Shown piece after piece: positions 8,742 to 20,642 of a stretch of DNA of 20,642 bases. Under the pieces are notes generated by a model, which did not search any database, had not been told where the DNA came from, and was given only the letters and a program-made list of their open reading frames with translations. Every line of letters starts with the position of its first letter. The stretch's first letter is position 1. Source of the stretch: Cyanobacteria bacterium P01_D01_bin.44 (GTDB lineage Bacteria > Cyanobacteriota > Cyanobacteriia > Phormidesmidales > Phormidesmidaceae). Made by a program: the position numbers and the translations under genes. The stretch lies in the NCBI GenBank assembly GCA_039200855.1, contig JBCCRZ010000029.1:1-20642 (forward strand). Reading direction: 5' to 3'.

Positions 8742-10400
8742 ATGATGCCTATTTTATTTGTGTTAGATGACGATCTCGACGTTCTAAAAGCGATTAAGCG
8801 TGACTTGCATTATAAGTATGGACAACATTTCCGAGTATTAGGCGCAAATTCGGGGATTACAGCGCTTGAAACCTTAAAAAACTTAAAGTTGCGCAACCAA
8901 CCAGTCAGCCTATTGTTGTCAGATCAGCGCATGCCACATATGACAGGCGTAGAGTTTTTTGAGCAAGCGATCGCAATTTTCCCCACTGCTAAACGGGTCT
9001 TGATCACAGCTTATACAGATACGGATACGGCAATCCATGCGATTAATAAAACGAAAATTGATTATTACTTACCAAAGCCGTGGACGCCACCGAAAGAGTA
9101 TTTATATCCTATCCTCAGTGATTTGCTCGAAGACTGGCATGCCTCATTTGAGACGCCGTGTAGAGGGATTCGGGTGATTGGTTATCGACGATTGCCTCAG
9201 TCCTATCAAATCAGAGACTTTTTGACACGCAATCAAATTCCTTACCATTGGCTAGATGTTGAAACAGATCACGAAGCCAGTCTTTTATCGAATTGCGTGA
9301 TACCTAACAATTCACAATGGCCTCTAGTGGTTTTTCCAGATGGCTCACATTTGGTGAAGCCTGGAAATGGTGAAATTGCTGAAAAACTAGGCCTAAAGAC
9401 TCGCCCTGAACGCTCATTTTATGATCTGGTGATTGTTGGGGGAGGCCCCTCTGGTTTGGCCGCCGCTGTTTATGGTGCATCCGAAGGACTACGCACGGTT
9501 ATGGTTGAGAGAGAAGCGCCTGGCGGGCAAGCTGGAACAAGTTCTAGAATCGAAAATTATCTAGGATTTCCATCGGGACTCAGTGGGGCAGATTTGGCCA
9601 GGCGGGCTGTCGCGCAGGCTAAACGATTTGGTGTAGAGATTTTGTCTCCCCAAGAAGTAACGAGTATTCATATTGAAGATCCGTATCGCGTGGCTAAATT
9701 AAAGAATGGGGCTGAGCTGAGTTGCCATGCGCTTTTAATTGCCACTGGTGTCACCTATCGCAGACTTGATGTCCCTGGCCTTGAAGCGCTGCGCGGAGCA
9801 GGGGTATACTACGGGGCTGCCACAACGGAAGCATCTGCCTGTCAGGGAGAAGATGTCTATATCGTAGGGGGGGCAAATTCAGCTGGCCAAGCAGCTATTT
9901 ACTGTGCCCAATATGCACGAAGTGTTGTGCTTTTGGTGCGAGGTGCTTCGCTAGAAAAAAGCATGTCTCAGTACTTAATCGATCAAATTAGAGATACAAA
10001 AAACATCACAGTATGGTTACACTCCAGCGTTGTTTCAGTGAAAGGCAAGCCTAGTCTTGAAGCGATTACGGTTGCCAATTCTGTCACCAGGGAGATTCAA
10101 ACGGTTCCGACAACTCGACTTTTTATCTTTATTGGCGCGATCCCGCATACGCACTGGTTAGGGGACACGGTAGAACGAGATCGGTGTGGCTTTATTTTGA
10201 CGGGTCCCGACCTGATGGAGATAGAGCATTGTTCACGTAAGTGGCCGCTTAAGCGCGATCCTTTTTTACTTGAAATGAGTGTTCCTGGCATGTTTGCAGT
10301 GGGGGATGTTCGTCATAAATCGGTCAAACGAGTGGCCTCTGCCGTCGGTGAAGGTGCGATCGCAGTACAGCTCATACATCAGTATCTCAGTACTATTTAA
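8742..10400 (+). CDS. Fused response regulator / thioredoxin-reductase-like FAD-dependent oxidoreductase
   Basis: 552 aa. The N-terminal REC domain has a complete acceptor set (DDD near residue 10, LLLSDQRMP, LITAYTD, YLPKPW). The middle is a thioredoxin-fold-like segment (IRVIGYRRLPQSYQIRDFLTRNQIPYHWLDVE). The C-terminus is a TrxB-like two-dinucleotide-fold domain (YDLVIVGGGPSGLAAAVYGASEGL, GGQAG, VYIVGGANSAGQAA, GMFAVGDV). Confidence 0.85.
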   Translation: MMPILFVLDDDLDVLKAIKRDLHYKYGQHFRVLGANSGITALETLKNLKLRNQPVSLLLSDQRMPHMTGVEFFEQAIAIFPTAKRVLITAYTDTDTAIHAINKTKIDYYLPKPWTPPKEYLYPILSDLLEDWHASFETPCRGIRVIGYRRLPQSYQIRDFLTRNQIPYHWLDVETDHEASLLSNCVIPNNSQWPLVVFPDGSHLVKPGNGEIAEKLGLKTRPERSFYDLVIVGGGPSGLAAAVYGASEGLRTVMVEREAPGGQAGTSSRIENYLGFPSGLSGADLARRAVAQAKRFGVEILSPQEVTSIHIEDPYRVAKLKNGAELSCHALLIATGVTYRRLDVPGLEALRGAGVYYGAATTEASACQGEDVYIVGGANSAGQAAIYCAQYARSVVLLVRGASLEKSMSQYLIDQIRDTKNITVWLHSSVVSVKGKPSLEAITVANSVTREIQTVPTTRLFIFIGAIPHTHWLGDTVERDRCGFILTGPDLMEIEHCSRKWPLKRDPFLLEMSVPGMFAVGDVRHKSVKRVASAVGEGAIAVQLIHQYLSTI

Positions 10401-10404
10401 TATT

Positions 10405-11829
10405 ATGATTGACACTGATACATTATGCCAGTTGCCATATTTTGCTGAGCTATCAAAACAGCAGTTAGACTGGTTGACGAAGCATGGCAACCAGATCACC
10501 CTAAGTCCGGGTGATTTGTTAGTCTCTGAGGGCGATTCGCCTGAATACTTTTATATTCTTCTCAAAGGCGAGCTTCAGAGTACTCAAAATATTGGAGAGG
10601 AGGAGATCGGTTTTGCCAGCTATAAGCCCGGACATTTTCTTGGCGAGATGCATATCGCTCTAGAGAGTGCTCATGTGAGTAGTGTACGGGCTCTGGTTCA
10701 CTGTCAGCTTTTTGAGTTGAAGAAGGGGGTATTTTTTCAAATGATGGCAATGTTTCCCTCTGTAAAACACTTCATTGTCTCTAAGATGGAACAGCATTTT
10801 CACGCAGCTCAAGGCATTCAATACCATGAAAAACTGGTTGGGCTTGGCACATTAGCGGCAGGTCTTGCTCATGAACTGAATAATCCAGCCGTAGCAGGGA
10901 ATCGGGCCGCAGAACATTTGCGCAACCATTTAGAGCGTTTGCAACCGCTGAGGACAGATGTTCAAACCACACTCTTAAGTGACTTGCAACTGGATGTGAT
11001 CTCGCGGGCAACAGCCCCCTTGTTTTCTGATCCATTCGAGAAAAGCGTTCAGGAGAGTACGGAATCCTTCTTATTAGATCCCTTAGAGAGAAGCGATCAG
11101 GAGGATAGAATTTTATCATGGCTGGCGGCCCGTGGTATCAATCATTGTTGGGAACTTGCGCCAACTTTAGTGGAGGCAAATCTACATATAGATTGGTTGG
11201 ACAGGGTTGCAGCGCGTGTAGACGCTGAGTCACTCCCCGGTGTACTGACATGGATTGGGTCTACGTTAGCCGTTAACAGACTACTGAGTGAGATACAACA
11301 TTGCACAACCCGTATTTCTGAAATGGTCAGTGCTGTTAAAGAATATTCGTACATGGATCAGGCTCCACTACAGGAAGTGGATATACATGAGGGGATTAAC
11401 TGTACTCTGTTGATGTTAGGGCATAAGATTAAGCGCGGCATCACCCTATTCTGTGAGTACGACCAACGCCTTCCCCGCATCTGTGTCTATGGCAGTGCAC
11501 TCAACCAAGTTTGGACCAATATCATTGACAATGCGATTGATGCAATTGATGCGATTGATGGACAAGGACAGCTCTGGATTCGCACTATGCGCGAAGATGA
11601 GTGTGTATTAGTTGAGATTATCGATAATGGGTCGGGCATTCCCCCTGAGATTCAATCGCGTATCTTTGAGCCATTTTTTACCATCAAGGGGGTCGGTCAA
11701 GGGACTGGCCTAGGCCTGAGCACTAGCTACCGGATTGTGGTTGAAATCCACCAAGGCAGCATCCGAGTGACGTCTAAGCCGGGTAAAACCTGTTTTCAGG
11801 TTCGCTTACCGCTTAAACAATGCGCTTAA
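10405..11829 (+). CDS. Sensor histidine kinase with N-terminal CAP/cyclic-nucleotide-binding-type domain
   Basis: ORF track 10279..11829. I start at ATG 10405, in frame and 4 nt after the upstream stop, because the upstream extension overlaps the TrxR-like gene. CAP_ED pattern: LPYFAELSKQQLDWL...GDLLVSEGD...FYILLKGEL...FLGEM. H-box LAHELNNP (His codon 10870-10872), N-box WTNIIDNAIDA, G1 DNGSGIP, F FEPFFT, G2 GQGTGLGLS. Confidence 0.85.
   Translation: MIDTDTLCQLPYFAELSKQQLDWLTKHGNQITLSPGDLLVSEGDSPEYFYILLKGELQSTQNIGEEEIGFASYKPGHFLGEMHIALESAHVSSVRALVHCQLFELKKGVFFQMMAMFPSVKHFIVSKMEQHFHAAQGIQYHEKLVGLGTLAAGLAHELNNPAVAGNRAAEHLRNHLERLQPLRTDVQTTLLSDLQLDVISRATAPLFSDPFEKSVQESTESFLLDPLERSDQEDRILSWLAARGINHCWELAPTLVEANLHIDWLDRVAARVDAESLPGVLTWIGSTLAVNRLLSEIQHCTTRISEMVSAVKEYSYMDQAPLQEVDIHEGINCTLLMLGHKIKRGITLFCEYDQRLPRICVYGSALNQVWTNIIDNAIDAIDAIDGQGQLWIRTMREDECVLVEIIDNGSGIPPEIQSRIFEPFFTIKGVGQGTGLGLSTSYRIVVEIHQGSIRVTSKPGKTCFQVRLPLKQCA
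11533..11559 (+). repeat. In-frame 9-bp tandem triplication (GCGATTGAT GCAATTGAT GCGATTGAT) encoding AID-AID-AID in the kinase N-box
   Basis: Read directly from the sequence. The three units are at 11533-11541, 11542-11550 and 11551-11559. Confidence 0.85.
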
Positions 11830-13718: not shown

Positions 13719-14050
13719 GTAGCTTTCTCAACAGGTTACTCTCTTACCATAGCTCCACTCATAAAAAATGATAATATACCTTTTTTGCTAAACACCTTTG
13801 CAATAAGCGCAAAGAAGAGTCCTAATGGGGCTTGGTTCAAACGAAGGTCACACTATGGGCGCGATCAGATCGTCTAAAGGCTTGACGCCATCCTTCCGCG
13901 TTGACGCAATAGCAGGCTGGGCCATTGTCAAAGATGATCTGATTTCGGCTGCGAGTGTTACCTAAAAACCGCTGAAATTGAACCATGCCTAAAATCTTCG
14001 GAGTGGCTGCGTAATTAGGGAGCTATTGATAGGAATATTCTCTTCTGAGT

Positions 14051-14260
14051 CATTGTCATCGGCGGATAAAGCATCGCTATTATCCAACCCTTGGATTTAG
14101 CGAGTTTGATGCTGCCCAAAGATTCTGTCGAGCGGTGGATGAAGTGGGCAACTTTTTTAGACCTCGAACGCAAATGGCAGAATTCGTATCTCTATATGAG
14201 CGCAGGCAGAAATTTATCAAAGGTGTTGAGGAACTGGAGGCATTATTTCTGGCTGCATAA
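14051..14260 (+). pseudogene. 3'-terminal remnant of an IS6-family (IS6100-like) transposase gene
   Basis: Not in the ORF track. My translation of the frame with codons at 14051, 14054... gives HCHRRIKHRYYPTLGFSEFDAAQRFCRAVDEVGNFFRPRTQMAEFVSLYERRQKFIKGVEELEALFLAA*. This matches the IS6 C-terminal signature as I recall it (..H...K.R...m.GF.S...AQRF...f......FRPR..m). The same frame upstream (back to ~13853, TLWARSD...FRLRVLPK...MPKIF....LGSY) looks like a heavily decayed continuation with about 10 in-frame stops. Confidence 0.5.
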
Positions 14261-14358
14261 AAACAAAAAGGATGGGAGAGGATATTTTTATGGCGATTAA
14301 AGATTATTTGGCGACTTAGTCCTGACACTTTCTCTTAATCTGGGAACAGCTGGCAAGA

Positions 14359-15498
14359 TTAACCAGGACCATTCGAGGTTGGGTAAGCACGCGAAGACTG
14401 AAACCGTTGAATTGAAAACGGTTCAATCGCCAGGGAGCTCTTGTGATTCAAAATTAGCTCCGACATAATTCGCCCCACAACGGGTGACAGTTGGAAGCCG
14501 TGAGCCGAGAAACCAAACACATGGTAGACGTTGGGCACTTTCGCGCTGGCACCGATGACGGGAATGCGATCCGGCATAAAGGCTTCCAAGCCTGCCCAAG
14601 TTCTGACAATGCGAACACCTGCCATCCTGGGAAACAGGTCCAGCACAGTGCGGCTGCTCTCAGAGAGTTTTAAGAAATCAATTTCTGTCGTCTCTCGCAC
14701 CATATCATGTTCGGCCAGATAAGCCCCGCCAATCAGCACGGTGCCGTTTTGCATCTGCTTAAAAGACAACTTACGGGAGGCAGCCCCCACCACTGGCTCC
14801 AGGAAAGGAGGTAAGCGCTCAGTCACCATCATCATGGGAGCACCAACCTTTAGAGGAACCGGTTCCTCTAAATAGTCACACACTTGTCCAGCCCAAGCTC
14901 CCGCACAATTGACGAGGATGGGGGCATCAAATTTAGTTTGTGCTGACACCACCCGCCAATAATCTCCGACTCGATCTAATCTAGTCACCCGGCAGCCCGT
15001 TCGATACTCTACCCCCAGGGACTGAGCTTTACGACGAAAGGCGGTGAGGGCGTGATAAGGACGGGCAAAGCCATCCCCGGCGCTATACAGTCCGCCGACA
15101 CAATGGGGAGCCAGGGCTGGCACCAGCTGGTAAAGGCGATCGCGATCAATGATTTGCTCATGGTCAAATCCCAGGGACCGAGCCAGGGCAGCCCGTTCTT
15201 CTAGCTTTTGTAAATCGGCAGCATTCTCTGCCACCCGCACCTGTCCGCTGAGTTTAACATCGCAGTCACTGCCGACTAAGGCACGGATATCCCGCCACAT
15301 TTGAGCGGCAACCACTGCCAGGGGAATCTCCGCCGGATGGCGATTCAAACGCCGCAACCCGCCCGCATTGACCCCAGAAGCATGGCGACCAGGGCTGTTC
15401 TTTTCTACAACAATCACCCTCTGGCCAGCCATCGCCAGGTGCAGCGCCGTAGAAGACCCGATCAAACCGCCCCCGATGATCACCACATCTACCGTCAT
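14359..15498 (-). CDS. FAD-dependent oxidoreductase, DAO family (opine oxidase subunit B / HcnC / sarcosine-oxidase-beta-like)
   Basis: The ORF track extends to 15648, but that N-terminal extension overlaps the upstream gene. The real start is ATG 15498 (MTVDVVIIGGGLIGSSTALHLAMAGQRVIVVEK), which forms an ATGA overlap with the upstream stop. The body is DAO-like (HASGVNAGGLR, VNCAGAW, HGFQLSP). Confidence 0.8.
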   Translation of the reverse strand: MTVDVVIIGGGLIGSSTALHLAMAGQRVIVVEKNSPGRHASGVNAGGLRRLNRHPAEIPLAVVAAQMWRDIRALVGSDCDVKLSGQVRVAENAADLQKLEERAALARSLGFDHEQIIDRDRLYQLVPALAPHCVGGLYSAGDGFARPYHALTAFRRKAQSLGVEYRTGCRVTRLDRVGDYWRVVSAQTKFDAPILVNCAGAWAGQVCDYLEEPVPLKVGAPMMMVTERLPPFLEPVVGAASRKLSFKQMQNGTVLIGGAYLAEHDMVRETTEIDFLKLSESSRTVLDLFPRMAGVRIVRTWAGLEAFMPDRIPVIGASAKVPNVYHVFGFSAHGFQLSPVVGRIMSELILNHKSSLAIEPFSIQRFQSSRAYPTSNGPG

Positions 15499-16898
15499 TC
15501 CTCTACCCTCGCTAGGTTGGCTAGCTGAGCAATGCTCAGGGGTCTGATCGGGGGACGCACCCGAAATGGTGGATAGTCGGCGACGGGGCACTGATGAGCA
15601 GCAGCAACAATATGGGCCACTGCTGGGGCACACTGCCTGCCCTGGCAAGGCCCCATCCCACAGCGGAGATAAAATTTAACCTGGTTGGGATCGGCATGGC
15701 CGCCCTGGACAGCCTGGCGGATTTGCCCCGCCGAAATTTCTTCACACCGGCAGACTAAGGTTTCGTCATCGGAGGGGACGAGAAGTGACTCTGGTAGGCG
15801 GGATAAGGCTTCTAGAAAGGGGCGAACTTTCAAATCTCGCCGCAACCCCTTGAGATCCGCCTTACCCTGACGATCCCGCTGTTGGGAGTTGATTAGATTC
15901 AATCTTCGAGCCGCTTCCAGGGCTGCTAACCGACCACGATGTTCGGCGCTACGCGCCCCCCCAATCCCGGCATTATCGCCCACGACTACAATCCCCGGCA
16001 CAGTCGTATTGCCCCACTGATCCACCTGGGGACGCCAACTCTGTTGACCCTGATCCCAGATCTGCTGGCAACCTGCGGCTCGGGTCAGGTTAGTTCTGGG
16101 GATCACCCCAAAATGCACCAGGAGACTGTCTGTGCTGATGGTCTCGCGCCGACGGATGCCCAGACTATCCCAACCGTATTCCACTGCCTCGATGTGCTTG
16201 TCACCTTGAGCCTGTAAGTGAGAAATCCCGTAGTAAATGGGCACGCCCGCTTTATTGAGATCCAGGGTGTATTTCAACCCACGGGTAATGTAATCTCCAG
16301 CGCCTAATGCCCTCGGTAAATGAGGAGCAGCCCGCCACAAGTTGCTGCCAGGGGAGAGGTCTAGCACAGCTTTCACCGAGACCCCAGCCCGGACGTATTG
16401 CCAGGCCACCAACAGGGGCAACGGCCCAGTTCCGGCGATGACCGTCCCATTAGCGGGCACCACCCCAGTGGTTTTCAGCAATATCTGGGCTGCGCCTGCA
16501 TTCATCACCCCTGGCAACGTCCAGCCCAGAAAGGGGACGGGGCGCTCCATGGCCCCACTGGCCACAATCACCTGCTCCGCTTGAATGAGGGAAGCTTGTT
16601 CGTGGCGCAAGATGCCAATCTGACGCTGAGCATTCAAAGACCAAACGGTTGTCTGGGGTAAATACTGGGCTCCACTGGCGTCAAAGGCTTTTACCAGGTC
16701 AGCACCGTGCTGGTAATCGGCCCCCAGCAATCTTGCCCGGTCTGCGGGAGCATTTGAGATTGCCCGGTAAATTTGTCCACCGGGGGAGGGTTGCTCATCG
16801 AAGACCACCACATCCATGCCCAGACTGGCCGCGGTGGTCGCCGCACACAGCCCCCCAGGCCCGGCCCCAATCACCACGAGCTGGTATGACTCAGGCAT
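15495..16898 (-). CDS. NAD(P)/FAD-dependent oxidoreductase with C-terminal BFD-like [2Fe-2S] motif (opine oxidase subunit A / HcnB-like)
   Basis: ORF track 15495..16907 (GTG). ATG 16898 gives MPESYQLVVIGAGPGGLCAATTAASLG. There is a second dinucleotide fold (VIAGTGPLPLLVA). The C-terminal Cys cluster is CRCEEIS...YLRCGMGPCQGRQC. Confidence 0.8.
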   Translation of the reverse strand: MPESYQLVVIGAGPGGLCAATTAASLGMDVVVFDEQPSPGGQIYRAISNAPADRARLLGADYQHGADLVKAFDASGAQYLPQTTVWSLNAQRQIGILRHEQASLIQAEQVIVASGAMERPVPFLGWTLPGVMNAGAAQILLKTTGVVPANGTVIAGTGPLPLLVAWQYVRAGVSVKAVLDLSPGSNLWRAAPHLPRALGAGDYITRGLKYTLDLNKAGVPIYYGISHLQAQGDKHIEAVEYGWDSLGIRRRETISTDSLLVHFGVIPRTNLTRAAGCQQIWDQGQQSWRPQVDQWGNTTVPGIVVVGDNAGIGGARSAEHRGRLAALEAARRLNLINSQQRDRQGKADLKGLRRDLKVRPFLEALSRLPESLLVPSDDETLVCRCEEISAGQIRQAVQGGHADPNQVKFYLRCGMGPCQGRQCAPAVAHIVAAAHQCPVADYPPFRVRPPIRPLSIAQLANLARVEE

Positions 16899-17187
16899 CT
16901 TCCCCACCGACTCCCCGCTGGCGGCAAATCTTCATGCCTTCTGCTACCTGCACTTGACAGGCTTGACGGTTGGGCACGCCGTCGATTTCCATCAGGCACT
17001 CAAAACACACCCCCATCATACATAAAGGGGCACGAGGTGCCCCCGACAGAGGTGTGGTACGGGTATACCCTAACCCATGGACTAAAACAGCCGCAGCCAC
17101 TGTCTCATCTGCAGGAACTTGGACCTCCTCACTTTCAATATTGACGGTTACCGTCGGGTCACTCAGGTCACTCAGACGCTTAAACAT
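16891..17187 (-). CDS. Small (2Fe-2S)-binding subunit (HcnA / sarcosine-oxidase-alpha N-terminal-like)
   Basis: 98 aa: TVNIESEEVQVPADETVAAAVL...PLCMMGVCFECLMEIDGVPNRQACQVQV. This is the Cys pattern of the small subunit of HcnABC-type enzymes. Its 3' end overlaps the next gene's start by 8 nt. Confidence 0.75.
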   Translation of the reverse strand: MFKRLSDLSDPTVTVNIESEEVQVPADETVAAAVLVHGLGYTRTTPLSGAPRAPLCMMGVCFECLMEIDGVPNRQACQVQVAEGMKICRQRGVGGEDA

Positions 17188-17220
17188 GTTTGGTTGCCTC
17201 CCCAGTCCATTGTCCCAGCA

Positions 17221-18282
17221 TCAGACCTTCACCTTCGAGGCCAGATCAGGATGCTCAAACACCATACTCTGTTGCAGGTCTAGCTGGGTCCCCTGGTGGT
17301 GTTTCTTGGCTCGATTGAACATTGCCGTTGCGATCGCAACATCAATATAGGCCAGACCCACAGCATTAAAATAGATCCGCTCTGCCGCCGATTCACGCCC
17401 TGGCTTTTTCCCCGACACCAATTCATGCAGATCGGCATGGATACTGTTAGCGCCAATCAGCCCTTCTTTATACATCCGGCTTAACGTCTGGGTCCGGTGG
17501 GTGACCGTTTCCCAGTCGTCGCACACGATTTTATCGGCCTGTAAGGCCACTTCATATTCATCCTCCCAGCCCCCCACATGGCTATAGAAAGCACCGGGTT
17601 TCATCCAGACCGCTTTGAGTAAGGGGGCCTGGGCGCTGGTGGCGGTTACCAGAATATCCGCACCCTCCATGGCTTTTTGAGCATCCGTATTCGTTGAGAA
17701 AAACTCCATATCTGGATACAACCGTGAGAGCTCAGCAACGAATTGTTCTTCATGGGTCACCTGGTAGTCTGATACTCGACATTGCTTAAGCCCAGGACAT
17801 ACCGCTTTCATTGCGATTAAATGCATCTTCGCCTGCTCGCCGGCCCCAATGAACCCAATCACTTCAGAGTCTGGGCGAGCTAGGCGCTTGGCCGCAATCC
17901 CACCCATAGCAGCTACCCGCATATTCGATGCGAGCGTCCCTTCCATAACACAGATAGGAAACCCCGTTTCAATTTCCGAAAGGATAAAAATAGCCGATAA
18001 ATTTTGCTGGTCGTGCTGGCTGGGATTCATCGGAAAGACCGACACCCATTTCACGCCGCACACCTTTTCATCTAAAAGCGTTGCCGGTAAACAGTTAATC
18101 CGTTCTTGGGTGGCCTGATTAAAAATCTGTACAATTTTCTCAGGAAAAATGACATGATGCCTCTCAAATTCGAGCATGCCTTTTTCTGCGACATCCATCA
18201 CCATCCGGATGTCCATACAACCTGCATCCAGGAGGTCTTCCTGGGATAAATAAGTGAATCTGAGACTATGTTTGTGAGTCAT
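17221..18282 (-). CDS. Ornithine cyclodeaminase / mu-crystallin family NAD(P)-dependent enzyme
   Basis: 353 aa. Motifs: VCGVKWVSVFPMNP, TLASNMRVAAMGG (T..R.AA), Rossmann VIGFIGAGEQAKMHL, ADILVTATSAQAPLL, PGAFYSHVGG, NAVGLAYIDVAIA. It lies 33 nt upstream of the 2Fe-2S subunit gene on the same strand. Confidence 0.85.
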   Translation of the reverse strand: MTHKHSLRFTYLSQEDLLDAGCMDIRMVMDVAEKGMLEFERHHVIFPEKIVQIFNQATQERINCLPATLLDEKVCGVKWVSVFPMNPSQHDQQNLSAIFILSEIETGFPICVMEGTLASNMRVAAMGGIAAKRLARPDSEVIGFIGAGEQAKMHLIAMKAVCPGLKQCRVSDYQVTHEEQFVAELSRLYPDMEFFSTNTDAQKAMEGADILVTATSAQAPLLKAVWMKPGAFYSHVGGWEDEYEVALQADKIVCDDWETVTHRTQTLSRMYKEGLIGANSIHADLHELVSGKKPGRESAAERIYFNAVGLAYIDVAIATAMFNRAKKHHQGTQLDLQQSMVFEHPDLASKVKV

Positions 18283-18691
18283 AAAGAGGATTCCTAAAAC
18301 TTACTGTGAAAAACATTTAGTCAATACTCAACTCGACTGGAAGAGAAAAAGCCTAGGCGAGCATGGGATTTGGATTGCCTCAAGAGCATATAATCTAATC
18401 TGTTTAGCCATTTTGATCACCAAACAAACCGATGAAAACATTTCCTGTCTCAAATCAACTAGCAACGACACTCATTTCTATCATGGCTTCTTCTTGCTGA
18501 AGGAAACATATAAATTTAATTTTCTAAAACATTGTTACGTTGCTTTAAATTTACCAATCTACCTATCCATCCCAGGATTGACAGTTCAGAACACCAGCAA
18601 CGTGTTATGGATTTGAGCATCTCTGAAAATGAAAGCTCCACGTGTGAGCTGACTACTTGAATCCAGCCTAAACGGCGACACTAGAGAAAAC

Positions 18692-19411
18692 GGCTGTGTT
18701 GCAAGAAGTTAGTTAGGAGAGGATTTTCCTGCCGATAGATCCTTGATTAGCCAGCCACTCCGAAGAGCTCGTGGATGAAAGAGAGCTGTCCTATAACATC
18801 GCCTTTGTCGATATCTTTGACCTGTCCCTTACGAATCATATTCATTGCCTCATAACCTCTGAGGGTTCGTCTGGCCGTGTTGAATGAGCTAAACCCCAGG
18901 CCAGGTTTGATGCGTCGTTTGATGAATCTATGGTCCTGTTCGACAATTATGATTTGATTTGAGCACTTTCTTGAGAAAGCATTTGGCGGCTTTGGCATCC
19001 CGCTTAGCACTGAGCATGAAGTCCAGGGTATTGCCTTCAGAATCGACGGCTCGATAGAGGTATTTCCACACGCCTTTGATTTTGATGTACGTTTCATCCA
19101 CCCTCCATTAATCATGGGTGGGACTCAGATGCGGGCGGCAACGCTTGTCTAATTCCCGGCTGTAAGCCTGGACCCAACGAAAGATAGTGGTGTGATCGAC
19201 TTTGAGGCCACGCTCACGCATCATTTCCTCCAAATCTCGATAGCTCAAGCTATAGCGCAGATACCATTGGACATTCAGCAGGATGATCTCAGGTTTGAAA
19301 TGACACCACTTAAACGGTTTTGAGGAAGACATGGACTATTGGCAGATGCGATCGAGCAGACTTTAGATTAACCTGGAATTATAAAATGGGGCGCTTTTTT
19401 GCAACGGAACC
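18692..19411 (-). mobile_element. Degenerate IS6-family insertion sequence (~720 bp) with recognisable terminal inverted repeats
   Basis: Left end GGCTGTGTTGCAAG (18692-18705). The right end reverse-complements to GGTTCCGTTGCAAAAAA (19411 back to 19395). Both fit the IS6/IS26-type GGnnnnGTTGCAA terminus. The transposase pseudogene lies inside. The element is ~100 bp shorter than typical IS6 members, consistent with the internal deletion. The flanking 8-mers (gagaaaac and ggaactcc) do not match, so no target-site duplication is seen. Confidence 0.75.
18747..19332 (-). pseudogene. IS6-family DDE transposase pseudogene (in-frame stop plus out-of-frame internal deletion)
   Basis: The N-terminus FKWCHFKPEIILLNVQWYLRYSLSYRDLEEMMRERGLKVDHTTIFRWVQ is classic IS6. 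An in-frame TAA at 19108-19110 is followed in the same frame by WRVDETYIKIKGVWKYLYRAVDSEGNTLDFMLSAKRDAKAAKCFLKKVLKS, ending at a TAG (18928-18930). The C-terminus (IVEQDHRFIKRRIKPGLGFSSFNTARRTLRGYEAMNMIRKGQV) continues in the +1 frame. The ~40-45 aa that normally carry the second catalytic Asp are missing. Confidence 0.85.
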
Positions 19412-19473
19412 GGAACTCCTCGGATTGAAGCGTTTCCAACAGACCTAATCCAACTGCTTCAAAACGGAAGCTC

Positions 19474-19502
19474 AGCCATCGTTAACTGATGGCTTATTTT
19501 GT
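19474..19502 (+). terminator. Weak intrinsic-terminator-like hairpin
   Basis: AGCCATC (19474-19480), loop gttaact, GATGGCT (19488-19494), followed by TATTTTGT. The stem is only 7 bp. It lies between the IS remnant and the NRPS gene, with no obvious upstream plus-strand gene to terminate. Confidence 0.3.
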
Positions 19503-19607
19503 CGTGAAAGTGTAACCTGAAAACCCCAGTTTTTGCACCATGCCCGAAACTTAGCAACCATCCGAGCGCAGCGCGTCCAGGACAGGGCGGATGGCACTGG
19601 TCAGCAT

Positions 19608-19648
19608 AAACCTGAATAAACCTGAATAAACCTGAATTTAAACCTGAA
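19608..19648 (+). repeat. Direct-repeat array of AAACCTGAA, 4 copies spaced 10, 10 and 12 bp
   Basis: Copies are at 19608-19616, 19618-19626, 19628-19636 and 19640-19648. A fifth copy, TAACCTGAA, is at 19513-19521. The array ends 95 nt upstream of the NRPS ATG. Confidence 0.85.
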
Positions 19649-19742
19649 CAAATATGACATTTTAGGGATTTTCTCTGTCAGCCATCTCCGACATGATTGA
19701 GGCATATCGAACAAGCCAGCCTTTCACCACAGGAGAGATATC

Positions 19743-20642
19743 ATGGCATCCCCGAATTTTCATTTATCGATTGCCCAAGAGAGGCTGTGGTGCCTGTCGC
19801 AGATGGAAGGAACCTCGGCGACGTACCATATGAGTCGATCATTTCATATAGAAGGGTGTCTAGATATCAAGGTCTTAGAAAAGGCTATCGATGAAGTGGT
19901 GCGTCGCCATGCAGTGTTGCGAACTACGTTTTCTACTCTAGATGGGTTACCGGTGCAAGCGATTGACCCGGCCATGAAGATACCTCTGCAGGTGATCGAG
20001 GGGTCAAATCTGAATGGATCTCTTCCCGATTGGTTGAACCAAGCAACACAGCAACCCTTTGATTTGGACGCAGAACCGCTACTGCGGGTGAAGCTGGTTC
20101 AACTGAAGGAGGAAGAATCCGTCTTACTGATCATCATGCATCACCTTATCGGCGATGACGGATCAATGGAGATATTTATTAACGAGCTCGCCAGTCTCTA
20201 TGCAGCCTATTGCCACGAACAACCATCTCCTTTGCCCCCATTGCCGCTTCAGTATAGTGATTACCACCTCTATCAAAGACAGGGGTTGCAAGCGGACGTA
20301 CTCGAGACACAACTGGGGTATTGGGAGCAACAACTCGCAGAGCTGCCAGCATTATTGGAACTGCCTACAGATTATTCCCGACTGGTCATGCAAACCTTTC
20401 GGGGGCAGACCCACACCGTACAGCTACCCCTGGCCTTGAGCCAAGACGTCAAAGCCCTAGCACAACAGCAAGGGGTATCGCTGTTCATGGTATTGCTGGA
20501 GGTCTTCCAACTGCTCCTCTATCGCTATAGTGGACAGCAAGATATCGTGGTGGGCACCCCTGTTGCCAATCGACAGCGGGCCGAGTTGGAGGCGTTAATG
20601 GGTTTATTTGCTAACACCCTGGCCCTGCGGGTGCAGATTGAT
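19743..20642 (+). CDS. Non-ribosomal peptide synthetase, 5' partial (N-terminal condensation domain; continues beyond window)
   Basis: This open frame is absent from the ORF track because it has no stop in the window (300 codons). ATG 19743 is the first start after an in-frame TGA (19698-19700), with AGGAGAG 5 nt upstream. C-domain core motifs occur in order: SIAQERLWCL (C1), RRHAVLRTTF (C2), MHHLIGDDGS (C3, 20136-20165), QYSDYHLYQ (C4), MGLFANTLALR (C5). Confidence 0.9.
   Translation, partial: MASPNFHLSIAQERLWCLSQMEGTSATYHMSRSFHIEGCLDIKVLEKAIDEVVRRHAVLRTTFSTLDGLPVQAIDPAMKIPLQVIEGSNLNGSLPDWLNQATQQPFDLDAEPLLRVKLVQLKEEESVLLIIMHHLIGDDGSMEIFINELASLYAAYCHEQPSPLPPLPLQYSDYHLYQRQGLQADVLETQLGYWEQQLAELPALLELPTDYSRLVMQTFRGQTHTVQLPLALSQDVKALAQQQGVSLFMVLLEVFQLLLYRYSGQQDIVVGTPVANRQRAELEALMGLFANTLALRVQID

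Follow-up and report, generated by a model that had tools for sequence, protein, structure and literature searches.

OdhABC, LhpBEF and HcnABC are characterized flavoenzymes composed of α, β and γ subunits (flavin/FMN/[2Fe-2S]), the first two being associated with opines and D-hydroxyproline, respectively (PMC4575208). The γ-α-β gene order is also found in Burkholderia thailandensis, and in the occ and noc regions of Ti plasmids the oox and nox genes occur together with ocd (PMC4575208). Insertion sequences (IS) of the IS6 family are known for replicative cointegrate formation and for adjacent deletions, and one of them, ISAcma1, is an 844-bp member of clade V of the IS6/IS26 family (PMC6807381). 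Here both types of element are described from a single 20.6-kb contig (20,642 nucleotides; the whole of it is referred to below as the window) of the marine cyanobacterial metagenome-assembled genome (MAG) Cyanobacteria bacterium P01_D01_bin.44. On its minus strand, at 14359-18282, the window carries an operon of four genes, one of the ornithine cyclodeaminase (OCD)/mu-crystallin family and three that encode the subunits of a flavin/iron-sulfur oxidase; remnants of two IS6-family elements, here termed IS6L and IS6R, lie to the left and right of it. The locus is most likely a metabolic operon that was acquired by ordinary horizontal transfer and lies in an accessory region scarred by IS elements, adding a further example of IS6 relics and of heterotrimeric dehydrogenase operons, both of which are known. 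A literature search found no papers on the MAG or on cyanobacterial copies of the operon.

The four genes are arranged head to tail, with ends that overlap or nearly abut. The first (17221-18282) encodes a 353-residue NAD(P) enzyme of the OCD/mu-crystallin family (PF02423, 1.8e-55), and is followed by the genes for the γ subunit (16891-17187), a 98-residue Fer2_4 [2Fe-2S] protein (PF13510, 1.5e-24), the α subunit (15495-16898), whose 467 residues contain Pyr_redox_2, BFD-like [2Fe-2S] and SO_alpha_A3 domains and are 100% identical to a protein on record for this MAG, and the β subunit (14359-15498), a DAO-family FAD dehydrogenase (PF01266, 5.9e-73). The ATG of the β gene overlaps the stop codon of the α gene, and the length of the β subunit, 379 residues, agrees with both the NCBI and the Logan gene calls. 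Comparison with four homologues gave ratios of nonsynonymous to synonymous divergence (dN/dS) of 0.05-0.11, demonstrating strong purifying selection. Upstream of the OCD gene is the AT-rich leader and promoter region of the operon (18283-18691, minus strand; G+C content (GC) 0.39-0.42), where similarity to the homologous loci L084 and L089 is limited to the nearest 50 nt, ending at about 18331-18335 with no match beyond; a promoter and terminator scan returned nothing above chance. We consider it rather probable that this operon, intact and selectively maintained, entered the lineage by horizontal transfer from a cyanobacterium of about 52-55% GC, and that the two IS6 elements are solitary relics of separate events, the left one marking a true breakpoint.

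Base composition sets the operon apart from the DNA to its left. In 500-nt windows GC is 0.42-0.51 to the left of 14.25 kb, compared with 0.53-0.60 over 14.5-17.25 kb. Against a background of 0.459 ± 0.015 (53 leave-one-out 1-kb windows) the island reaches 0.59, with z values of up to 8.7 for GC and up to 11.6 for tetranucleotide distance (1-kb windows), confirming the GC shift at about 14.3 kb that was proposed in an earlier note on this DNA. The strong GC anomaly is limited to 14.36-17.2 kb, where the three oxidase genes lie. At 0.50, the total GC of the OCD gene is marginal, whereas its GC at third codon positions (GC3, 0.551) is not. GC3 in all four operon genes (0.525-0.611) is higher than in every one of 11 background genes (0.399-0.472), and the excess over background at the three codon positions is 0.10 (GC1), 0.08 (GC2) and 0.145 (GC3). 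Such values are not intrinsic to the oxidase family, as its GC3 drops to host level (0.37-0.45) in several other low-GC hosts. The nearest homologue, with 86% amino acid identity, displays a GC3 of 0.59 within flanks of 0.52 GC; the window values match these, which points to a putative donor of about 52-55% GC and to amelioration that would be incomplete. The GC3 excess indicates a foreign origin, total GC being the weaker criterion. GC3 is also raised in the start of a nonribosomal peptide synthetase (NRPS) gene beyond IS6R (0.557) and in the IS6R fragments (0.50-0.57), so that IS6R cannot be shown to end the compositional domain. The view that the island is bracketed by IS6 elements holds for its left edge, which coincides with a break in synteny, but IS6R is not shown to be its right edge.

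The operon behaves as a mobile, self-contained unit with a scattered occurrence in marine bacteria and a patchy one in cyanobacteria. Homologues of the α subunit whose named source is cyanobacterial, about 25 in number, are the nearest (70-86% identity), after which identity drops to 66% or less and the only named sources are Proteobacteria. The close homologues come from scattered marine cyanobacteria, namely Leptothoe, Calothrix, Pleurocapsa, Synechococcus PCC 7336 and Acaryochloris, in which the genes are plasmid-borne. The four genes stay together in each of seven genomic contexts, no two of which have the same neighbours; among the seven are two transposase-crowded Acaryochloris plasmids and a toxin-antitoxin-rich region of Synechococcus PCC 7336. 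All four genes are also present at two more distant loci (65% α identity, 61-63% GC), and a metagenome scan yielded about 60 more loci, twelve of cyanobacterial type and about 40 others with identical gene order. Among about 70 other loci, IS6 elements near the operon were confined to the Acaryochloris plasmids and one pair of distant metagenome loci, at other junctions; about 20 other copies of cyanobacterial type lack any IS6 within 7 kb.

HIP1 sites are informative about the donor. There are five in the window, compared with 0.25 expected, two of which (15136 and 17330) are within the island. The site in the β gene (gene position 356) occurs at the same aligned position in six of seven other homologous operons (seven of eight with the window), and the site in the OCD gene is common to a Calothrix copy. 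As these positions are shared with homologues, the sites came with the operon and reflect a cyanobacterial history, not long residence. The earlier note had taken the acquisition to be old and fixed, in part from HIP1 sites in the island; the two sites are there, but the dating is invalid, fixation is not shown by one MAG and one near-identical Logan contig, and HIP1 content cannot provide a date for an acquisition when the donor itself is cyanobacterial. The shared HIP1 positions, together with the cyanobacterial origin of the nearest 25 or so homologues, argue for a cyanobacterial donor.

The left border of the island lies beside a dsbA-like gene that is paired with an FAD monooxygenase gene, and the latter served as the anchor for a scan of 185,579 species genomes. 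The operon was absent beside dsbA at 80 of 80 loci, the nearest of which is just 79% identical in the anchor protein, and beyond the dsbA module nothing else of the window was syntenic in these 80 relatives. The comparison with relatives called for by the earlier note is therefore a weak test of presence or absence at this site, but it did bring the loss of a LysR gene to light. About 100 nt 5' of dsbA (13727-13830, minus strand) are conserved at the DNA level in some 48 cyanobacterial genomes across orders (for example L006, 8980-9077), with 72-88% nucleotide identity at the equivalent position. This region displays an inverted motif (TTTGCG..N..GCAAA) and no Rfam match, and in relatives it sits between dsbA and a divergent LysR-type gene; it is probably a LysR operator plus promoter, the operator being kept here while the regulator is gone. 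In 48 of 68 informative relatives a LysR gene of about 305 codons is adjacent to dsbA and divergent from it, with a median gap of 124 nt, and this holds for all relatives of 77-79% identity from which the upstream gene was extracted (L004-L010, L012 and L016). No LysR remnant was found anywhere in the window. Synteny with other cyanobacteria ends at about 13830, the site where the LysR gene starts in relatives, and is followed by about 0.2 kb of unassignable DNA (13831-14044) that matched neither the plasmid collection nor any of the fetched loci and lacks an informative open reading frame (ORF). At the left border, the apparent loss of the LysR gene is positive evidence of deletion or rearrangement where the island begins.

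Next to this orphan DNA is IS6L (14045-14332, plus strand), a 3'-terminal piece of an IS6-family element whose 5' part is missing. The 71 C-terminal residues of an IS6-family transposase are encoded in frame +2 at 14045-14257; a stop codon follows at 14258-14260, and then about 72 nt of terminal non-coding DNA. The peptide is 65% identical (E = 1e-28) to an intact 249-residue IS6 transposase from Acaryochloris marina S15, shows 65-73% identity to Acaryochloris and Picosynechococcus plasmids in tblastn comparisons, and matches positions 164-202 of NCBIfam NF033587, a weak (E = 0.009) but correctly placed alignment. NCBI protein numbering leaves no annotated protein for IS6L, in agreement with the unannotated plus-strand transposase remnant that the earlier note had placed at the left edge. 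The end of the element was mapped on two independent Acaryochloris copies, which lose similarity to each other and to a third copy 76 nt past the stop codon; the window aligns through this segment, placing the outer end at about 14332, 27 nt from the stop codon of the β gene. The degenerate terminal repeat suggested at 14307-14322 is inside the conserved terminal segment, although the terminus lies further out and the gap to the stop codon is 27 nt, not 37 nt. No convincing matching left terminal repeat could be defined in the intact relative of IS6L. Among 5.8 billion proteins the IS6L lineage comprised 28 matches, all fragments of 74-125 residues, most of them encoded in MAGs of marine cyanobacteria; PF13610 is present in every relative at 67-88% identity. 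IS6L belongs to a rare cyanobacterial IS6 lineage known almost only from fragments, and the sole intact copy seen is on an Acaryochloris marina S15 plasmid. The label of IS6100-like that the earlier note gave to IS6L does not hold: its intact relative shares 28% identity with the transposase of IS6100, compared with 30-35% for IS26-type and IS257-type enzymes, and plasmid tblastn comparisons matched IS6L to no IS6100-bearing plasmid.

IS6R (18692-19411, minus strand) is a defective ISAcma1-like element of 720 bp that aligns end to end with ISAcma1 and with a Gloeocapsa IS6, both terminal repeats included (18692-18708 and 19394-19411, of GG..TGTTGCAA type), and a 720-bp minus-strand element with inverted repeats is what the earlier note had recognized here. 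The transposase matches NF033587 at positions 1-64 (2e-24) and 150-202 (3e-10), and also PF13610. Its length corresponds to about 845 bp less an internal deletion of 125 bp at 18947/18948, which shifts the frame and removes the region of the second catalytic Asp (residues equivalent to 139-178), and there is an in-frame TAA at 19108-19110. With its DDE triad not intact, IS6R is a defective family member. No 8-bp target duplication surrounds it, the flanks being GAGAAAAC and GGAACTCC; target duplications are often absent in the IS6 family, so that their absence is no argument against membership. The closest transposase relatives of IS6R on record are 82-86% identical, and its ISAcma1-like lineage is abundant in filamentous cyanobacteria. 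Degraded ISAcma1-like IS6 elements with 71-77% nucleotide identity to IS6R are also present on the Acaryochloris plasmids (L088, 5935-6645; L087, 5015-6626), some 1.3 kb away from the OCD gene on its 3' side and with another transposase inserted between. Their position may be fortuitous, the plasmids being rich in IS elements, or may hint at an association of long standing.

IS6L and IS6R share 33% identity over 124 residues and thus represent different lineages, and their transposase genes lie on opposite strands, both with the 3' end towards the operon. These data bear out the earlier view that two IS6 types are present and that the locus is no simple composite transposon. Both elements are dead, as had been supposed, IS6L through 5' truncation and IS6R through its deletion and stop codon. 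A search for intact copies of either type found no copy at least 90% identical to IS6L or IS6R among the 5.8 billion proteins, those of the MAG included.

Taken together, these features suggest a course of events in which the operon, which here lies in a rearranged accessory stretch, would have entered the lineage by horizontal transfer, its synonymous sites not yet having adjusted to the host. The LysR gene would have been replaced by 0.2 kb of orphan DNA and by an IS6 3' end that abuts the operon, a junction of the kind that IS6-family cointegrate formation or adjacent deletion could leave. The accessory stretch may have collected independent IS6 events, which is the most economical reading of two unlike relics. 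The structure extending from the end of IS6L through the operon to IS6R was reproduced in a Logan contig from run SRR22824307, which corresponds to 14219-19639 of the window with 4 mismatches in 5,421 nt, demonstrating that a slightly different population or consensus carries the same arrangement.

Several observations weigh against transfer as set out above. The synonymous divergence (dS) to the nearest sampled homologue is 0.8-1.4, and no recent donor was found. Identities among the cyanobacterial copies are star-like, at around 80%, a pattern that, taken by itself, could also result from ancient vertical descent followed by numerous losses. With a best anchor relative of 79% amino acid identity, no available genome is close enough for a clean comparison of presence and absence. 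The Logan contig starts inside IS6L, at 14219, and the left junction (13.8-14.2 kb) is therefore in one assembly only. IS6 activity is a natural cause of that junction but an unproven one, suggested solely by its position. There is also no conserved neighbour that points to a substrate: among 80 flanking ORFs no Pfam family occurred more than six times. Finally, about 55% of the GC excess is at positions tied to a protein composition rich in Gly, Ala, Arg and Pro.

The last of these points leads to the strongest competing explanation, that the operon is an old resident inherited vertically, that the GC step is intrinsic to its genes and that the IS6 relics inserted incidentally into intergenic DNA nearby. 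The oxidase genes were GC-richer than their flanks at all 29 other metagenome loci with adequate flanks (+0.02 to +0.16, median +0.074). Across genomes oxidase GC follows flank GC (oxidase GC = 0.72 × flank GC + 0.218), and the excess in the window, +0.112, is just 0.022 (0.8 standard deviations) over this trend. The concentration of more than half of the excess at GC1 and GC2, the strong purifying selection with saturated dS, and the HIP1 sites within the genes are likewise in accord with vertical descent. Against it, GC3 of the four genes tops that of every background gene, in a family whose GC3 can fall to host level; the distribution is very patchy, with some 25 clusters among cyanobacteria; each context is different and some copies are plasmid-borne; and synteny breaks exactly at the left border. 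Vertical inheritance is an unlikely explanation. The claim that the operon is foreign retains the support of GC3, varied contexts and broken synteny, although the size of the GC step overstates its foreignness. The locus provides a worked example in which an IS-flanked compositional island is real and yet its GC step is mostly a property of the gene family, showing that GC3 and a cross-genome comparison are needed before transfer is called.

A second explanation links the operon to the NRPS gene, whose start lies 1.46 kb away: the four genes would be an accessory of the NRPS cluster that provides a non-proteinogenic amino acid, such as a cyclic imino acid formed by the OCD enzyme. The similarly raised GC3 of the NRPS start (0.557) and the presence of OCD-family lysine cyclodeaminases among distant PDB matches accord with such a role. 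The lysine cyclodeaminase matches are weak, however (E about 4e-11 versus 5e-44 for SbnB), a dead IS6 element separates the two loci, and the four-gene unit is conserved on its own, with an NRPS beside none of about 70 other operon copies. This association is improbable, and the NRPS gene is best regarded as a neighbour outside the four-gene unit.

It is also very improbable that the contig is a chimera, in which two loci or organisms were joined through an IS6 repeat and the boundary is an artefact of assembly. The boundary does coincide with an IS fragment, the Logan contig does begin within IS6L, and the left-flank gene is on a separate 1.6-kb contig of SRR22824307 that ends short of the junction; in a check for independent confirmation of the left junction the dsbA product was not on record. 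The break caused by LysR loss, however, is 200 nt to the left of the IS fragment, in unique sequence, and is independent of any join through a repeat. The junction between the end of IS6L and the operon is reproduced in the Logan contig, flank and island are present in the same run, and the remnant measures just 288 nt and has no second copy on record.

Translocatable units and composite transposons require the same IS in direct orientation. An IS6-cargo-IS6 transposon, or the decayed translocatable unit (an IS with adjacent DNA beside a resident copy) entertained in the earlier note, is the least credible origin, as IS6-family elements on both sides without target duplications (a common outcome of IS26-type cointegrate or targeted events) and the degraded ISAcma1-like element 1.3 kb from the operon on Acaryochloris plasmids are set against elements of different lineages (33% amino acid identity) that are inverted, both defective and without 8-bp duplications, against junctions unlike those in Acaryochloris, and against the absence of IS6 within 7-10 kb of the operon at twelve cyanobacterial-type metagenome loci and in five other genomic contexts.

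The predicted function of the operon is that of a heterotrimeric flavin/iron-sulfur amine dehydrogenase of the HcnABC/OdhABC/LhpBEF type accompanied by an OCD enzyme, inferred from domain content and from analogy with the characterized systems. The best solved relative of the β subunit is 1Y56_B, the β subunit of Pyrococcus L-proline dehydrogenase. Identity of the β subunit is 40-44% with homologues from Ti plasmids and reaches 54% with a copy that forms part of a B-C-A-B cluster on an Azospirillum plasmid, together with genes for ABC transporters and RidA proteins. All NCBIfam matches of the OCD protein are under the equivalog cut-offs, the best being SbnB, archaeal AlaDH and Pyr2C reductase, and no equivalog cut-off was reached by any of the operon proteins. 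Its relatives in the PDB include 4M54, 1VLL and 6T3E, and the match to SbnB (5e-44) is much stronger than that to true ornithine cyclodeaminase (1e-19). The β subunit would act on an N-substituted or cyclic amino acid (an opine-like compound, D-proline or hydroxyproline), oxidizing its C-N bond to an imine, with electrons passing through the α and γ subunits, and the OCD-family enzyme could then use NAD(P)(H) to process the resulting imine or amine.

The OCD partner of the oxidase belongs to one of two lineages that are about 62% identical (window, 17221-18282; L085, 12805-13863; L088, 7974-9032; L098, 6500-7558; L119, 1610-2668). Members of the first are upstream and co-directional, and are 72-89% identical across cyanobacterial-type and more distant loci. 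Members of the second are divergent or downstream, and are 81-90% identical across both groups. The oxidase subunits, by contrast, follow the split between cyanobacterial and more distant loci, with 77-90% identity within the cyanobacteria and 54-66% outside. As the OCD and oxidase splits are discordant, the operon is a mosaic in which the OCD gene has been exchanged.

It is possible, although we put this forward tentatively, that the OCD-γ-α-β unit represents an uncharacterized pathway, widespread in marine settings, that oxidatively cleaves or interconverts an opine-like compound or a cyclic imino acid (such as invertebrate opines or D- or hydroxy-proline) and that has been picked up repeatedly by benthic and symbiotic cyanobacteria. 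OCD lineages would then have been swapped against the same oxidase genes, and the obligatory pairing of the two enzyme types would make the unit a new module of two enzymes, not a variant of OdhABC or LhpBEF. The window provides one more context for this conserved but uncharacterized operon of OCD and flavoprotein genes, which is frequently met in marine metagenomes, and adds a record of a rare IS6 lineage of cyanobacteria whose known members are nearly all fragments. The question of main interest is the substrate of the widespread OCD-γ-α-β unit.

To the left of 13.8 kb the window contains ordinary genes, including an isoamylase and a histidine kinase gene in addition to the dsbA-like gene and its FAD monooxygenase partner. 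The gene at 8742-10400 encodes a fusion of a response-regulator receiver domain with a thioredoxin-reductase-like Pyr_redox_2 protein, and the one that follows (10279-11829) encodes a histidine kinase that carries a cNMP-binding domain. In many relatives the dsbA/FAD-monooxygenase module includes thioredoxin-reductase-like paralogues (45-49% identity) that are not fused. Between IS6R and the NRPS start, 19606-19649 contains three to four copies of a tandem repeat of about 10 nt (AAACCTGAAT), within which, at 19639, the Logan contig stops. The NRPS gene (19743-20642, plus strand), cut by the end of the contig, opens directly with an N-terminal condensation domain (PF00668, 8.4e-78), possibly a starter C domain, and its GC3 is raised as in the operon. 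Scans for tRNA and for Rfam families found no tRNA, tmRNA or Rfam match in the window, and there was no integrase among its ORFs.

Comparison with described IS6 systems places IS6R closest to ISAcma1, which encodes a 236-residue transposase on plasmid pREB7 of Acaryochloris marina. The two elements are about 71% identical in nucleotide sequence from inverted repeat to inverted repeat, with shared terminal repeats of GGTT..GTTGCAAAAA type, and both the N-terminal H-HTH and the C-terminal regions of the transposase are common to them. IS6R differs in its length of 720 bp, the frameshifting 125-bp deletion, the in-frame TAA and the lack of a target duplication. The locus as a whole resembles IS26-type pseudo-compound transposons in that IS6-family elements flank a passenger and 8-bp duplications are absent, whereas here the elements are of unlike lineages, inverted and defective, and the passenger occurs elsewhere without IS6.

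The operon shares with OdhABC, OoxAB/NoxAB, LhpBEF, HcnABC and the archaeal L-proline dehydrogenase three tandem, overlapping genes that encode a DAO-family β subunit, a Pyr_redox_2/[2Fe-2S] α subunit and a Fer2_4 γ subunit. Its γ-α-β order equals that of OdhC-A-B in B. thailandensis and of the genes on pTiChry5. On pTiChry5 γ-α-β directly follows an NAD(P) octopine/nopaline dehydrogenase gene and is accompanied by an ABC transporter, and the position of the dehydrogenase gene is the one occupied by the OCD-family gene in the window. In contrast to systems of the OdhABC/LhpBEF type, the window has no nearby ABC transporter, arginase or hydroxyproline-pathway gene, and the constant partner of the oxidase is of the OCD family and not of the octopine/nopaline-dehydrogenase family. 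The combination of an opine-oxidase-type enzyme with a gene of the ornithine cyclodeaminase family is also a feature of the occ and noc regions of Ti plasmids; the unit in the window, however, consists of only four genes, and the closer relatives of its OCD protein are SbnB, archaeal AlaDH and Pyr2C reductase, true ornithine cyclodeaminase being more distant.

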